This document shows positions 55,831-60,577 of a stretch of 64,000 nucleotides of DNA, piece by piece. Under the pieces are notes generated by a model. That model had not been told where the DNA came from and searched no databases. It worked only from the letters and a program-made list of their open reading frames with translations. Within the stretch, counting starts at the first letter, position 1. Each line of letters opens with the position of its first letter. The position numbers and the translations under genes are program-made. Source of the DNA: an uncultured Bordetella sp. Its GTDB lineage: Bacteria > Pseudomonadota > Gammaproteobacteria > Burkholderiales > SG8-41. Where the stretch lies: contig CAYSQJ010000005.1 in assembly GCA_964433345.1 (NCBI GenBank), positions 155,585 through 219,584 of the forward strand. Reading direction: 5' to 3'.

Positions 55831-56002
55831 TGTATGGCGGAGAGGGAGTCCGCCATACTAATGTCCAATGACGTCCAACCCGGTCCGATGATTCTGGGTT
55901 TTACAGAGGGAAATTGTTGATCATGGCTTGACATGCCCAAATCAATCCAACACCATCCTTACCTGAAACGTGGGTAGAAACGAGGGTAGGATTGGAGGTG
56001 CA

Positions 56003-57223
56003 ATGGGGCGGGCATTACAGCGGTTGTCGACACGATTCGTGGCCAGCAAGACGGTAGCCGGTTATTACGCCGACGGCGGCGGGCTGTATCTGCAGGTCGG
56101 CTCCTCCCGCAGCAAAAGCTGGATATTCCGTTACACCCTCAACGGCCGCGCCCGCGAGATGGGGCTGGGATCCGTGAGCAATATCGGCCTGGCGGATGCA
56201 CGTAAGTCTGCCAGTGCGTGCCGCGGCCTGTTGCATGAAGGCAGGGATCCCATCCAGGTGCGCGATGCTGAACTGGCAGCTGAGCGGCTTGTACAGGCGC
56301 GCGCCATCACTTTCCGGGAATGTGCGGCAGCCTATATCGATGCTCACCGCGCAGGCTGGAAAAACGCCAAACACGCCAGTCAGTGGACCAATACCCTGGA
56401 GACCTATTGCGGGCCGGTATTTGGCGGTTTGCCGGTTGCGGAAGTGGATACCGGCTACGTGCTGAAGGTGCTGGAACCGATATGGGCGCAAAAGTCCGAG
56501 ACGGCAAGCCGGCTGCGGGCACGCATCGAAAACGTGCTGGATTGGGCGACCGTCAGGAAATACCGCTCCGGTGAAAACCCCGCCAGATGGCGGGGGCATC
56601 TGGATATGCTGCTTCCCAGGCTCGGCAAGAAACAACGGGTCAAGCACCACCCGGCGATGCCTTATGGCGAAATCGGTGCTTTCATGGAGCGGCTGAGGGC
56701 GCAGCCCGGAATCGCCGCCCGTGCGCTGGAGTTTCTTGTCTTGACCGCCGCGCGTACGGCCGAGGTGATTGGTGCAAGGCCGGAAGAATTCGACTTGAGC
56801 AAGGGCGTCTGGATCGTGCCGGCCGAGCGCATGAAATCCGGCCGGCCGCACCGGGTGCCGTTGTCAGGGCGGGCGCTGGCAATTGTCAAAAAACAGAAGG
56901 AGGGGAAATACATCTTCCCGGGGGCCCGCGGAAAAAATCCCTTGAGCAACATGGCCATGCTCAAGCTCCTTGAGCGCATGGGCATTGATGCCACGGTGCA
57001 CGGCTTCCGGTCGACGTTCAGGGACTGGGCCGCGGAGTGCACCCATTATTCGCGGGAGGTGTGCGAAATGGCCCTGGCCCACACGGTCGGGGATCAGACC
57101 GAAGCGGCGTATCGGCGTGGTGATTTGTTTGAAAAGCGCAGACTGCTGATGGGCGACTGGGCTGAATACTGTTCGGCACCGGCAGAGACGAAGATTGTGC
57201 CGCTCAGGCAGGCGTATGCGTAA
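56003..57223 (+). CDS. Tyrosine recombinase/integrase (P4-like, DUF4102 arm-binding N-terminus)
   Basis: ATG after GGAGG; YYADGGGLYLQVGSSRSKSWIFRY, C-terminal HGFRSTFRDW...LAH...Y. Confidence 0.85.
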   Translation: MGRALQRLSTRFVASKTVAGYYADGGGLYLQVGSSRSKSWIFRYTLNGRAREMGLGSVSNIGLADARKSASACRGLLHEGRDPIQVRDAELAAERLVQARAITFRECAAAYIDAHRAGWKNAKHASQWTNTLETYCGPVFGGLPVAEVDTGYVLKVLEPIWAQKSETASRLRARIENVLDWATVRKYRSGENPARWRGHLDMLLPRLGKKQRVKHHPAMPYGEIGAFMERLRAQPGIAARALEFLVLTAARTAEVIGARPEEFDLSKGVWIVPAERMKSGRPHRVPLSGRALAIVKKQKEGKYIFPGARGKNPLSNMAMLKLLERMGIDATVHGFRSTFRDWAAECTHYSREVCEMALAHTVGDQTEAAYRRGDLFEKRRLLMGDWAEYCSAPAETKIVPLRQAYA

Positions 57224-57266
57224 GGATTAGCAGAGTGTCTTTAATCGACCTCGAAGGGAAGTGGGT

Positions 57267-57710
57267 ATGGCCAATCTTGAACGGGCAATCAGCATTGCGG
57301 TTGAGGCGCATCGTGGTTCGGTAGACAAGAGCGGGGTGCCTTACATCCTGCACCCCTTGCGTTTGATGTTGGGGATGTCTACCGACGCAGAGCGCATGAT
57401 TGCGGTGCTCCATGATGTGGTGGAAGACACGCACTGGACGCTGGATGCACTCCGCGCGGAGGGGTTTTCGGAAGATATCCTGTCGGCGCTGGACTGCCTG
57501 ACGCGGCGGGAGGGCGAAACCTACGAGGCGTTTATCGCCCGCGCGTCCGCCAACCCGTTGGCCCGCCGGGTGAAAGTCGCAGATCTTGAGGACAACATGG
57601 ACATCCGCCGGCTTTCTCGTCTTGCGGATAAGGATGTGGAGCGACTGCGGCGCTATTTGGCGGCGTGGCAGTTCATGGTGAGTGAAGCTCACGAGTTGGG
57701 AATGACTTGA
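57267..57710 (+). CDS. Small HD-domain protein, RelA/SpoT-type (p)ppGpp hydrolase-like (small alarmone hydrolase candidate)
   Basis: About 147 aa; AHRGSVDKSGVPYILHPLRL, VLHDVVEDT, VKVADLEDNM. Confidence 0.65.
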   Translation: MANLERAISIAVEAHRGSVDKSGVPYILHPLRLMLGMSTDAERMIAVLHDVVEDTHWTLDALRAEGFSEDILSALDCLTRREGETYEAFIARASANPLARRVKVADLEDNMDIRRLSRLADKDVERLRRYLAAWQFMVSEAHELGMT

Positions 57711-57776
57711 ATCTGGAATTTTGTCTATCAAACTAGGGGCAATTCATCCTTCCACGAGCTTGGCACCTTTGATTTG

Positions 57777-58118
57777 CTATCCACACCCATGCACTACTTG
57801 GTTTAGGTCGGACAACGATCCGCGCGATCTCTTCAAGCTGATTCGCCCGCCAATCACGTAACCGCTACGTCCGTCGGGCAGGCGAACAATGGGCGTGACG
57901 TCATCCTTTTCGACATCGCATCCAATGACGGGGAGTTCTTCACCGGCGCGTAGGACTTTGATAGGCGCATTGGGGATTGTACCCTTTGGTGCACCATAGA
58001 TCTCGGTTTGTTGATCGGCTCTCAAGACAATAACGTCACCACTCAGCACATAGCCAACGAGACTAAGGCCGAGTGAAACCAAAACTGCTATTCCGGCCAG
58101 GACTGCCTTTTGAAACAT
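57777..58118 (-). CDS. Membrane-anchored small protein, candidate immunity protein for toxin CT2
   Basis: ATG 2 nt after the toxin stop; N-terminal TM anchor AVLAGIAVLVSLGLSLVGYVL; AT-richer than the genome. Confidence 0.5.
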   Translation of the reverse strand: MFQKAVLAGIAVLVSLGLSLVGYVLSGDVIVLRADQQTEIYGAPKGTIPNAPIKVLRAGEELPVIGCDVEKDDVTPIVRLPDGRSGYVIGGRISLKRSRGSLSDLNQVVHGCG

Positions 58119-58120
58119 GG

Positions 58121-60211
58121 TCAAGGCACCATCGGTAGCGGTGACAAGGGGCGCGGTCCGGGATAGTAGTTGCCCGGTAACGTAAATGGCGACCGCCCTA
58201 GATCCCTTAAGAAGTCGCGTGGCAACATCGAGTCACCGACATCGATCCCAAATTGCCTCAGGCACTCCTGCCACGGAGTACCACAATTATTACTCGTCGC
58301 GCTGTATTGGGGATCCGACGACAGAAGGCATTTCCGCAACTCCGCCTCTTGCTGCGGTGTAAGCGGAATTCGCACTCCGATCCCATTGCGAACCTGCTGC
58401 TGCCGCTGAATGTAGTCATCAGCGCGAGGATATGTACGATCCCAGCCCCGAGGTCCGAAGGAGAAGTTTTCCCCGTTGATGTTCCCCGAGACATGCCCGA
58501 AGCTACTCTCAAGCTGGCCCAAGTTCCCAGGAACGATTCCGCCCGACCAGGAAAGAGCGCCCCAGAATATGATCTCCGTCATGAGTCCGAGTGGATCTAC
58601 CCTGCTCAATGGATTGCTCCCGACATACGCATAGGTATTAATCCCTCCCGCCAGTCCAATCGGATCAGATTGCACATACCGTCCGGTGAGCGGGTCATAG
58701 TCCCTGAAGTAGTTGTAATGCGTGCCGAGTTCTGTGTCGAAGTACTGCCCCGGCAATCTGAGGTTGCAGGTAAAGTTCCCCGCCCCCGAGGGGTTCTCGT
58801 TCGGCGCATTGTTCCCATAGGGATCATCGTTCGCCCAACTCCACACCGCCTGTCCCGTGTCACTGGTAATGAGCCGCGGCGTGTTCAGGTGATCGGTGTG
58901 CACGAAGTACATCTTCGGCACGGTGGTGAGCGCGATCAGCTGGATCGCATCCGCAATGACGAAGCCGTTGGCCTGGTCGGTGAGGGTGATGGTGCTGCTG
59001 CCGTTGAGGTTAAACGTCCCCAGCAGGTTGAAGGCACCGCCATTGGTCTGCTGGTTGACGGGTACTTGAGTGGTCCCCTGGGCATGGTTCACCGTGTAAG
59101 TCGCATTGCTCGCCCGATTCGGGTTTGCCGTCCACTTCGCATACACCTCGTATTGCCCCGCTGCGACGTTCGGCGTCCAGGTCGCGGTGTTGAACTCCGG
59201 CGCCGAGGCCTCGATCAGCCGGATCGCATCCGCAATCACGAAGCCATTGGCCTGATCCGTCAGACTCACCTTGTGGCCCGATCCGGGCGCCATGCTGTAA
59301 GTGCCGAGCAAGACCCACTGCCCGTTGTTCTGCACCTGATCCACCGTCACCGGGGTGTCACCCCCGGCATGGGTCACCGTGTACTGGGCATTGCTCGCCC
59401 GGTTCGGATGCGCCGTCCAGCGGGCATAGACCTTGTAGCTGCCCGCACTGGGGATCGTCGGCGTCCAGGTGGCCGTATTGGGGGCCGCATTCTCCGGGGT
59501 GACCTTGATCGCATCGGCAATGACGTAGCCGTCACCCTGGTCGACCAGCACCACCGAGTGGCCGCTGCCGGCGTTGAGACTGAAGGTGCCCAGCAACTGC
59601 CAAGTCCCGCCATTGGCCTCCTGGTTCACCGTCACCGCTGTCGCGCCCCCGGCATGGTTCACCGTATAGGTGGCCTGGGTGCTGCGGTTGGGGTGGGCGG
59701 TCCAGCGGGCATAGACCTTGTAGCTGCCGGTGGTGGGGATGGTGGGGGTCCAGGTGAAGCTGTTGGCCCCGGCCCCGGCCGGGTGATGCTGGTAGTTGCT
59801 GCCGTAGTAGCCGCCGACACTGGTGGAAGTGGCCCAGGTGCCGGAGGCCGTGCCCGCGGTGTTGTCCACCACGATGGCAGAGGGTTCCTCGCCATTGGCG
59901 GCGTGGACCTGGTAGTTGCTGCCCAGATACCCGCCCACCGAGGTCGAAGTGGGCCAGGTGCCAGTGACACTGAAGCCCGAGTCGGTGTTGTCCACCACGA
60001 TGGCGCCGGGCGGGCTGCCGTTGGCGGGGTGGGCGAGGTAGTTCGTGCCCTGGTAACCGGGCACATTGGTGGAGGCCGACCAGCTGCCCAGCGTGCTGAA
60101 GCCGGCGTCGGTGTTGTCGATCACCACCGGGGTGGCGGCCTGGGTGGCCACGGCAGCGCAGAGGAGGAATGCAGCGAGTATTCCTGCGGTACTGTGGTTA
60201 TGGGAGGGCAT
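58121..60211 (-). CDS. Secreted lectin-repeat / RHS-core / C-terminal toxin (CT2) protein, downstream copy
   Basis: Signal peptide ...AAFLLCAAVATQA|ATP; repeat modules; core MYFVHTDHLNTPRL...YDPLTGRYVQSDPIGL...SRVDPLGL; unique 153-aa C-terminus; no obvious SD. Confidence 0.8.
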   Translation of the reverse strand: MPSHNHSTAGILAAFLLCAAVATQAATPVVIDNTDAGFSTLGSWSASTNVPGYQGTNYLAHPANGSPPGAIVVDNTDSGFSVTGTWPTSTSVGGYLGSNYQVHAANGEEPSAIVVDNTAGTASGTWATSTSVGGYYGSNYQHHPAGAGANSFTWTPTIPTTGSYKVYARWTAHPNRSTQATYTVNHAGGATAVTVNQEANGGTWQLLGTFSLNAGSGHSVVLVDQGDGYVIADAIKVTPENAAPNTATWTPTIPSAGSYKVYARWTAHPNRASNAQYTVTHAGGDTPVTVDQVQNNGQWVLLGTYSMAPGSGHKVSLTDQANGFVIADAIRLIEASAPEFNTATWTPNVAAGQYEVYAKWTANPNRASNATYTVNHAQGTTQVPVNQQTNGGAFNLLGTFNLNGSSTITLTDQANGFVIADAIQLIALTTVPKMYFVHTDHLNTPRLITSDTGQAVWSWANDDPYGNNAPNENPSGAGNFTCNLRLPGQYFDTELGTHYNYFRDYDPLTGRYVQSDPIGLAGGINTYAYVGSNPLSRVDPLGLMTEIIFWGALSWSGGIVPGNLGQLESSFGHVSGNINGENFSFGPRGWDRTYPRADDYIQRQQQVRNGIGVRIPLTPQQEAELRKCLLSSDPQYSATSNNCGTPWQECLRQFGIDVGDSMLPRDFLRDLGRSPFTLPGNYYPGPRPLSPLPMVP

Positions 60212-60227
60212 CAAGAGATATTGTTTT

Positions 60228-60257
60228 AAGTATTTGTTTTTATTGATTATTTTTATC
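60228..60257 (+). promoter_or_regulatory. AT-rich recurrent element (IHF-site-like), copy 7
   Basis: aagtatttgtttttattgattatttttatc (14/15 core), 17 nt upstream of the minus-strand start at 60211. Confidence 0.55.
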
Positions 60258-60262
60258 GTCCG

Positions 60263-60577
60263 TTATGTTTTTTGCTCCATCATTTTCCGCAGACCGTAAA
60301 AAGCAATCGATAAGAGTGCGATACCAGATATCAACGCAACTAACACGGCTAGCCCCCCCCGCAGCCCTCCCACTGAATGGATCACATGTCCCATTGCAAA
60401 TACGCCAAGTAAAGTAGTGGAAATCGAGATCAAGATCGCGTGGCGCAACCATTGCTGTCCGCGATGTAGGGATCTATTGAAGCGCACCAGCAAATAGCAA
60501 AAAAAACAAGTACAGCCGGTGAGCCAGCCATATCCAATGGACCAGAGCACTGTCTCCCAATAACTAACGTCCACCAT
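60263..60577 (-). CDS. Small polytopic membrane protein (second immunity-like gene after CT1)
   Basis: 169-aa ORF trimmed to MVDVSYWETVLWSIGYGWLTG...; three hydrophobic segments; starts 2 nt after the previous stop; AT-rich. Confidence 0.45.
   Translation of the reverse strand: MVDVSYWETVLWSIGYGWLTGCTCFFCYLLVRFNRSLHRGQQWLRHAILISISTTLLGVFAMGHVIHSVGGLRGGLAVLVALISGIALLSIAFYGLRKMMEQKT

Follow-up and report, generated by a model that had tools for sequence, protein, structure and literature searches.

A compact, predicted permuted NlpC/P60-type toxin tip on a Rhs carrier of an uncultured Bordetella sp. and its putative membrane-anchored SH3-like immunity protein

Lipid-targeting toxins of the circularly permuted NlpC/P60 kind have, to our knowledge, been characterised only in 2024-2026 and from one Salmonella T6SS effector. 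The closest characterised system to the locus described here is Tox-Act1/Imm-Act1 (STox_15) of the Salmonella SPI-6 T6SS, reported in PLoS Biol in 2026, the likeness being drawn from the published description (PMC12994826). Tox-Act1 is a permuted NlpC/P60 toxin belonging to a sister clade of DUF4105, which is toxic in the periplasm only, requires both its His and its Cys and cleaves PG and PE, while its immunity protein Imm-Act1 has two membrane helices (PMC12994826). Lnb of Bacteroides, described in PNAS in 2024, is a DUF4105 lipoprotein N-acyltransferase with a proposed Asn-His-Cys triad (PMC11573676). A further permuted NlpC/P60 toxin used between bacteria, TseH of V. cholerae (VCA0285, PDB 6V98), has a Glu-His-Cys triad and is reported to behave as a phospholipase in a liposome-based fluorescence assay but not in a mass-spectrometry PG/PE assay (PMC12994826). 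The same permuted catalytic order occurs in YiiX/Peptidase_C92 (2if6), PPPDE/DeSI (2wp7, 3ebq) and LRAT/PLAAT proteins, none of which serves as a toxin module accompanied by an immunity gene.

The domain to be compared with these systems, referred to here as CT2, is encoded in a 64,000-nucleotide stretch of DNA from an uncultured Bordetella sp. (the window), and all features described below lie on its minus strand. The carrier gene (58121..60214) encodes 697 aa made up of a signal peptide, Golvesin_C repeats, the Rhs C-terminal core and CT2, and matches Golvesin_C (5e-106) and RHS in a Pfam search. Two cassettes with a long identical stretch in common stand here in tandem, of which this is the second, the upstream cassette being identical as far as DPEGL and divergent beyond. 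The carrier gene has a start of its own and its own signal peptide, which differs from that of the upstream copy. The TIGR03696 Rhs_assc_core match covers carrier residues 464-544 and ends at the DPLGL junction (58583..58597), where, judging by the sequence and by this match, the Rhs core ends and the variable tip starts. The C-terminal sequence of the carrier thus reads ...NPLSRVDPLGL and then CT2, MTEIIFWGALSWSGG...GPRPLSPLPMVP*, the latter comprising 153 aa (carrier residues 545-697; 58121..58582 including the stop) with coding positions 58582-58124 and a stop codon at 58123-58121. The immunity candidate (57777..58118; 113 aa) has its ATG at 58118, 2 nt past the CT2 TGA, and its stop ends at 57777; an alternative TTG start at 58124 would give 115 aa, but the ATG is preferred because the closest CT2 relative (L003) has the same 2-nt toxin-immunity spacing. 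With a variable domain right after a DPxGL core and a small gene directly downstream, the locus has the makeup expected of a Rhs tip, and CT2 is the predicted exchangeable toxin tip of a Rhs-type polymorphic toxin. The first-pass annotation, made from the letters alone, had described 153 aa after DPLGL carrying a GH and then an NNCG motif, followed 2 nt after the stop by a 113-aa gene; both motifs are present (SSFGH and SNNCG) and the reading-frame layout is as it described.

Like Tox-Act1, which is missed by standard HMMs and linked to DUF4105, CT2 escapes the standard models: neither NCBIfam nor PADLOC nor Pfam, the last searched to E<=1, gave a match, and the immunity candidate was likewise without a match in the Pfam, NCBIfam and PADLOC searches. 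Chance similarities to influenza NS1, RAD52 and M-CSF in PDB sequence and profile searches (E at least 0.2) were dismissed. CT2 matched 252 representative proteins at E<=1e-3, including 127 at E<=1e-10, whereas a separate word-indexed homologue search with CT2 alone retrieved only 4 proteins; relatives were counted as clusters at 50% identity, so that the family has at least 252 of them. Eight close CT2 sequences served as query in a search for related loci. The relatives are always C-terminal on Rhs/YD-shell proteins of up to 2236 aa, and a signal peptide opens both long relatives whose N-termini were read as well as the window's own carrier. Gly29, Arg65, Cys100 and Pro121 are invariant in all 109 aligned relatives, and His30 (108/109), Ser41 (106/109), Tyr93 (106/109) and Trp7 (105/109) are nearly so; the window CT2 retains every conserved residue. 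Since there are 252 relatives, with the His kept in 108 and the Cys in all 109 of those aligned, a chance origin can be dismissed, and CT2 is by sequence a real family without a Pfam or NCBIfam model, far beyond chance.

The predicted catalytic histidine, His30 (codon 58493..58495; SSFGHVS), and the predicted nucleophile, Cys100 (codon 58283..58285; SNNCG), were both assigned from their conservation and from alignment with Lnb_N, and, as in Tox-Act1, itself a polymorphic-toxin domain built on a permuted NlpC/P60 core, the His precedes the Cys. Sub-threshold Pfam matches among 45 CT2 relatives fall solely in permuted-papain families, namely Lnb_N (20/45, best E 1.5e-4), PPPDE (4/45) and LRAT (1/45); the clade table of the Tox-Act1 study similarly contains Rhs C-terminal toxins with weak DUF4105 or Peptidase_C97 Pfam matches (PMC12994826). 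The organism names looked up from CT2 relatives are absent from the supplementary tables of that study (PMC12994826). When a profile of 109 CT2-family sequences was aligned by HHalign with one of 25 Lnb_N domains (PF13387), the match had a probability of 94.5% (E 7.6e-8, 138 columns) and paired His with His, Cys with Cys, Arg with Arg and Tyr with Tyr, bringing CT2 His30 onto the Lnb_N SMFGHT motif and Cys100 onto ENCS; shuffled and reversed controls gave 0.7% or less. Arg65 and Tyr93 lie in motifs common to CT2 and Lnb_N. For CT2 itself the homology to Lnb_N emerges solely from comparing profile with profile. Two other HHalign comparisons were too weak to be retained, one with Peptidase_C92/YiiX-like domains (8.3%, though His and Cys were aligned) and one with membrane-bound DUF4105 proteins encoded in related genomes (24.8%).

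Structural modelling agrees with the profiles. In the AlphaFold model of CT2 (pLDDT 88.6, pTM 0.82) His30 opens a strand (30-35) and Cys100 stands just ahead of a helix (102-109); in papain-like enzymes the Cys lies just before a helix. The top PDB matches found with Foldseek are YiiX, DeSI-1 and PPPDE1, all weak (E 0.14-0.67, TM 0.35-0.49), and the matches in a viral structure library include a cysteine peptidase as well as a PPPDE protein and an LRAT; TseH (6V98) is absent from both the PDB profile-search and the Foldseek matches. Taken with the profiles, the model supports placing CT2, a compact domain of about 140 residues, in the circularly permuted NlpC/P60 papain-like superfamily; of the named families, the periplasmic Lnb_N/DUF4105 domain is nearest to it by profile comparison. 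This bears out the suggestion of the first-pass annotation that CT2 has a circularly permuted papain fold of the LRAT/YiiX-like NlpC/P60 kind, since Lnb_N is the 94.5% profile match, YiiX, DeSI-1 and PPPDE1 are the top, if weak, fold matches, and the remote-homology and structure searches of aa 545-697, apart from the chance similarities noted above, returned permuted-papain matches and no unrelated fold.

CT2 differs from its described relatives in several respects. It shares with Lnb the aligned His, Cys, Arg and Tyr and a site of action that for CT2 too would be periplasmic. Lnb, however, has a housekeeping role and contains five membrane helices, whereas CT2 is soluble and has none; an Lnb_N gene was not found in the host genome. 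The position of Lnb's Asn aligns with Ser41 of CT2, which is likely the third polar residue of the active site. The spacing between His and Cys is 70 residues in CT2 as against 108 in Tox-Act1 (H43/C151) and 99-108 across Lnb, TseH and Tox-Act1, the stretch being about 35 residues shorter than in Lnb, so that the lipid-binding parts of these three proteins may be missing from CT2. A conserved, predicted structural disulfide is a feature of CT2 in comparison with Tox-Act1: Cys85 (codon 58330-58328) and Cys107 (58264-58262), which flank the nucleophile (58262..58330), covary almost perfectly across the 109 relatives (both present in 79, neither in 29, a single one in 1), which predicts a disulfide and hence an oxidising compartment. 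The carriers also differ, Tox-Act1 using the T6SS and CT2 a Sec-signal Rhs cassette, while TseH is T6SS-delivered and is no Rhs tip. Searches of the source genome (99.76% complete) for VipB/TssC, Hcp and PAAR gave no match, and type VI secretion cannot be the route by which CT2 would be delivered in this genome.

The gene directly downstream, as in Tox-Act1/Imm-Act1, encodes a product predicted to sit in the membrane. The immunity candidate begins with MFQKAVLAGIAVLVSLGLSLVGYVLSG, which forms one helix (residues 2-25) in the model (pLDDT 80.9) and is followed by a predicted exported bacterial SH3 domain at about residues 28-99; the first-pass annotation's single N-terminal membrane anchor with a soluble domain is what the model displays, the soluble part being an SH3b fold. 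The model matches the SH3b domains of ALE-1 and lysostaphin (Foldseek probability 1.00, E 0.017, query-normalised TM 0.43). The window protein has 41 relatives, and Pfam SH3_3 (PF08239) is matched by 35 of 49 immunity-family members (best E 1e-5), the window protein itself having no match. A partner gene lies directly downstream in 52 of the 58 distinct CT2 relatives, at a spacing of about -12 to +54 nt from the toxin, and is of SH3 type in 44 and of a second family of small exported proteins (family B) in 8. In both families the proteins start with a membrane helix or a lipobox, and a Cys pair of their own is present in many. Judged by sequence, the CT2 branch pairs with exported immunity candidates from two unrelated families, single-helix or lipoprotein SH3b proteins (or family B) standing in the place of the two-helix Imm-Act1. 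An EF-hand assignment for family B (E 0.17 only; no Pfam family) was rejected. The SH3-like, membrane-anchored 113-aa protein is most likely what blocks CT2.

We consider it fairly probable that CT2 is an acyl-lipid enzyme, acting as an envelope toxin on the periplasmic side and blocked by its coupled SH3 partner. Cys100 would serve as the nucleophile, activated by His30, and the Cys85-Cys107 disulfide would lend CT2 stability once it is outside the cytoplasm. If the enzyme behaves like Tox-Act1, TseH, Lnb, LRAT and YiiX, it would form an acyl-thioester and cleave or transfer fatty-acyl chains of membrane lipids; the substrate, phospholipids or possibly lipoproteins, would be met at the periplasmic face of the competitor's envelope. 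The producer would be shielded by the translationally coupled downstream protein, whose SH3 domain would be anchored to the inner membrane on its outer face and is predicted to block the toxin by binding to it. Toxicity of CT2 and protection by its partner are both predictions. The action in the envelope that the first-pass annotation had proposed fits the covarying Cys pair and the exported partner proteins, which point to the periplasm.

That the substrate would be lipid rather than peptidoglycan we infer by analogy. An unlikely alternative is that CT2 attacks peptidoglycan, as an amidase or endopeptidase of the Tae-like NlpC/P60 type that cuts the wall from the periplasm and is blocked by the SH3b protein. 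It keeps the superfamily and the periplasmic site, and it would agree with SH3b domains typically binding peptidoglycan peptides and accompanying NlpC/P60 wall hydrolases, with the presence of 3h41, 6biq and lysostaphin among the matches of the immunity model, and with the original proposal of TseH as an endopeptidase. The wall-cutting NlpC/P60 enzymes known so far, however, have the canonical Cys-then-His order, whereas acyl lipids are the substrates of the permuted enzymes, among them LRAT, YiiX, Lnb, Tox-Act1 and, on the evidence of the liposome-based assay, TseH (PMC12994826). Lnb_N is moreover the sole significant profile link, and no canonical NlpC/P60 or CHAP family appears among the Pfam matches of the 45 relatives.

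We regard as rather unlikely a more specific proposal, in which CT2-type tips, rather than being simple phospholipases, attack the lipid anchors of lipoproteins as mini Lnb relatives, with SH3b immunity derived from the accessory SH3b domains of NlpC/P60 enzymes. Acyl chains would be removed or mis-transferred, blocking Lol sorting, and the SH3b immunity proteins would descend from accessory domains packed onto the active site of NlpC/P60 enzymes. If true, the toxin target would be one not yet described, and the immunity protein would have been recruited from the enzyme's own regulatory module.

A PPPDE/DeSI-like peptidase or isopeptidase, cutting a periplasmic or outer-membrane protein, for example at a lipoprotein linkage, is improbable. 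The Peptidase_C97 matches (best E 6.4e-4), a precomputed PF05903 assignment on one relative and the rank of DeSI-1 and PPPDE1 as fold matches 2 and 3 all speak for it, but such matches are fewer than those to Lnb_N, the bacterial periplasm has no known ubiquitin-like modifiers, and the motifs beyond His and Cys (Arg65, Tyr93 and NC) are those of Lnb_N.

Just as improbable, and compatible with any enzymatic activity, is the possibility that the CT2 cassette is a silent spare tip, kept only to recombine with the upstream cassette and yielding no protein where it now lies. This reading is suggested by the position of CT2 in the second of two cassettes that are in tandem and share a long identical stretch, and by decayed copies at other loci (L014, L070, L096, L120 and L127); the lack of a sigma-70-like promoter in 57600-60500, where no terminator was found either, points the same way, but that scan was a crude consensus search. 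The 697-aa reading frame is intact, with its own start, a distinct signal peptide and the full set of conserved residues, and the immunity gene is intact and coupled, which argues against a spare. Action in the target cytoplasm, where effectors fused to Rhs repeats usually work (PMC12994826), is very improbable given the disulfide implied by the covarying Cys pair, the membrane helix or lipobox at the N-terminus of both partner families and the periplasmic action of the nearest relatives.

If CT2 is, as we favour, a periplasm-acting acyl-lipid enzyme, it would represent a widespread, uncatalogued and far more compact branch of the lipid-targeting permuted NlpC/P60 toxins. As a small and well-modelled domain, it may be of use for defining the minimal catalytic unit of permuted NlpC/P60 enzymes, and its locus would provide a test case for Rhs cages delivering periplasm-acting enzymes without type VI secretion. 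For the annotation of toxin-immunity loci, SH3b would be a new immunity fold.

The carrier ORF (697 aa; 58121-60214, minus strand) has four parts: a signal peptide, Golvesin_C repeats (Pfam E 5e-106), an Rhs C-terminal core (TIGR03696, residues 464-544) and finally the 153 residues past DPLGL, here called CT2, for which no match was found in Pfam, NCBIfam or PADLOC. The first-pass annotation had described such a tip with His and Cys motifs and an adjoining gene for a 113-aa protein; this was confirmed as a whole, and the CT2 sequence it quoted is letter-for-letter identical in the window. Numbered within CT2, the two residues, read from the sequence, are His30 (codon 58495-58493, minus strand) and Cys100 (58285-58283, minus strand). 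The toxin and immunity genes are each present in a single copy in the host genome.

When 1.84 billion representative proteins were scanned in full with HMMER, 252 relatives were returned at E<=1e-3 (127 at E<=1e-10); the match is C-terminal in every one, and the proteins are up to 2236 aa long. Seven long relatives were tested, and each proved to be an RHS or teneurin-like YD-shell protein; three have DUF6531 and none has PAAR. The two relatives read full length (P0018 and P0107) begin with signal peptides. P0107, at 2236 aa, is a teneurin-like bacterial protein with TTR-like, NHL and YD-shell domains, and the domain therefore also occurs on very large, eukaryote-like YD-shell carriers. The family is patchily distributed: it was detected in 4 of the 301 genomes sampled from the host's order, but not in the three further species sampled from its genus. 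Decayed or truncated CT2-type genes were also observed (L014:3953-4390, L070 with one in-frame TGA, L096, L120 and L127); in those examined the partner gene is lost or disrupted, except at L070, which keeps an SH3-type partner. These genes appear to be what is left of cassettes that have been displaced.

Among 109 aligned CT2-type domains, Gly29, Arg65, Cys100 and Pro121 are invariant, while His30 is found in 108, Ser41 and Tyr93 in 106 each and Trp7 in 105; the window's CT2 retains all eight. The same alignment reveals an 11-residue insertion (SWSGGIVPGNL, residues 11-21; 58520-58552, minus strand) that is present in about 5% of the relatives, including the 78%-identical one at L003 in a Rhodocyclaceae MAG, and whose end (residues 18-23) is the sole low-confidence segment of the AlphaFold model.

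The proposal that CT2 has a permuted papain fold of the LRAT/YiiX-like kind was supported by both remote-homology and structure searches, which led to the same superfamily throughout and to no unrelated fold. When 45 family members were scanned singly, Pfam gave weak matches to Lnb_N (formerly DUF4105) in 20, to PPPDE in four and to LRAT in one, all three being permuted papain-like families. HHalign of the CT2 family against a profile of 25 Lnb_N domains, all taken from genomes within the host's class, gave 94.5% probability (E 7.6e-8, 138 columns), with four motifs in register: SSFGH with SMFGH, NNC with ENC, Arg65 with the conserved RD and Tyr93 with the conserved Tyr. With CT2 alignments that had been reversed or shuffled by column the probability was at most 0.7%, and with Peptidase_C92 (YiiX-like) just 8.3%. 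From 121 sequences AlphaFold produced a confident model (pLDDT 88.6, pTM 0.82), with a strand beginning at His30 and Cys100 immediately preceding a helix, as in papain-like enzymes. Foldseek against the PDB ranked YiiX (2if6), DeSI-1 (2wp7) and PPPDE1 (3ebq) at the top, all of them weak matches (E 0.14-0.67, TM <=0.49) and none significant singly; in a viral structure library the matches, at TM ~0.5, included a cysteine peptidase, an LRAT and a PPPDE protein. Profiles and model thus place CT2 in the permuted papain-like superfamily, with all lines of evidence agreeing and none pointing elsewhere, and His30 and Cys100 are its predicted catalytic pair. For Lnb the triad Asn66-His49-Cys148 has been proposed (PMC11573676), and through the profile alignment we infer that its conserved Asn column falls on Ser41 of CT2.

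The predicted nucleophile is flanked by Cys85 and Cys107, which occur together in 79 of the 109 relatives and are both missing from 29; the sole relative with a single one also lacks the His. From this co-occurrence a structural disulfide is predicted, which in turn indicates that CT2 would work outside the cytoplasm, and the exported partner proteins agree with this. The fold, the Cys pair and the partner together support the earlier interpretation of a permuted papain fold acting on the envelope side beside an anchored partner.

The immunity candidate (113 aa, minus strand) starts at ATG 58118, 2 nt past the toxin TGA, and has a hydrophobic N-terminus; a TTG start at 58124 is also possible, the ATG being preferred because the closest relative (L003) has the same 2-nt spacing. 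The N-terminal anchor and soluble domain expected of it appear in its model (pLDDT 80.9) as a helix at 2-25 followed by seven strands, which resemble SH3b domains found in ALE-1, in lysostaphin and in NlpC/P60 enzymes (Foldseek probability 1.00). Beside this gene, and convergent with it, 57261-57710 (plus strand) encodes a stand-alone HD-domain protein (HD_4, E 4.5e-5, below the Pfam cut-off), flanked on its other side by a P4-type integrase gene (55970-57223).

CT2-type toxins were examined at 12 loci from genomes, 58 from metagenomes, 2 from plasmids and 3 more that came from genome searches. They are followed, mostly at -12 to +54 nt, by either of two kinds of small protein, with family A after 44 and family B after 8 of 58 distinct toxin domains, counts that include near-duplicate loci and are not independent events; in the remaining six the contig ends, the toxin gene is decayed, or the A-like gene is divergent or frameshifted. 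This pairing with exported partners is conserved, and the partner would putatively protect against the toxin. Family A, to which the window's protein belongs, has an N-terminal helix or lipobox and then a beta-rich domain, with Pfam SH3_3 matches in 35 of 49 members, and by sequence and model consists of bacterial SH3 domain proteins; the branch that contains the window's protein carries a Cys pair of its own. Family B is unrelated, without a Pfam family, and comprises proteins of 83-91 aa in which a single N-terminal helix is accompanied by a stretch resembling DxNxDG and by two invariant Cys (L007:643-912, L009:687-938, L011:4414-4680, L013:691-966 and L041:5375-5647; also L094, L103 and L108). 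It replaces the SH3b protein in loci of one toxin lineage, and since B-linked toxins group in one region of the toxin tree, immunity type tracks toxin lineage.

The gene context suggests delivery by a route other than type VI secretion. Neither VipB/TssC, Hcp nor PAAR was found in the host genome (99.76% complete), and the layout is split and Sec-exported, an Rhs shell gene (DUF6531 and RHS repeats) lying separately upstream of the carrier. At L002:5739-13857 the shell gene is placed back to back with a cluster resembling those for type II secretion or type IV pili, made up of G, F, E, PilN and a secretin with a cohesin domain. Azoarcus sp. KH32C has a similar layout on its plasmid pAZKH (NC_020548.1; L040:1578-6800), where a DUF6531/Rhs shell gene and a small gene are followed by a separate ORF whose product combines a hydrophobic stretch at the N-terminus with an Rhs core and a CT2-type tip, then by an unannotated 128-aa SH3-like family A partner and an IS3 element.

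By published description, CT2 resembles Tox-Act1 of Salmonella, a PG/PE phospholipase whose permuted NlpC/P60 core forms a sister clade to DUF4105, which standard HMMs fail to detect, which is toxic in the periplasm only and requires H43 and C151, and which is paired with a membrane immunity protein (PMC12994826). CT2 shares the core, the DUF4105 kinship, the failure of standard HMMs and the membrane-anchored partner, and may likewise be toxic and act on a lipid. The published clade table includes toxins at Rhs C-termini that match DUF4105 or Peptidase_C97 weakly (PMC12994826), the pattern also seen in the CT2 family. The two differ, however, in that CT2 has a predicted disulfide, a His-Cys spacing of 70 residues (99-108 in Lnb, TseH and Tox-Act1), SH3b or family B immunity candidates where Tox-Act1 has Imm-Act1 with its two helices, an Rhs carrier that bears a Sec signal of its own and a host genome without T6SS markers. 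CT2 is a new, compact form of a toxin type described only recently.
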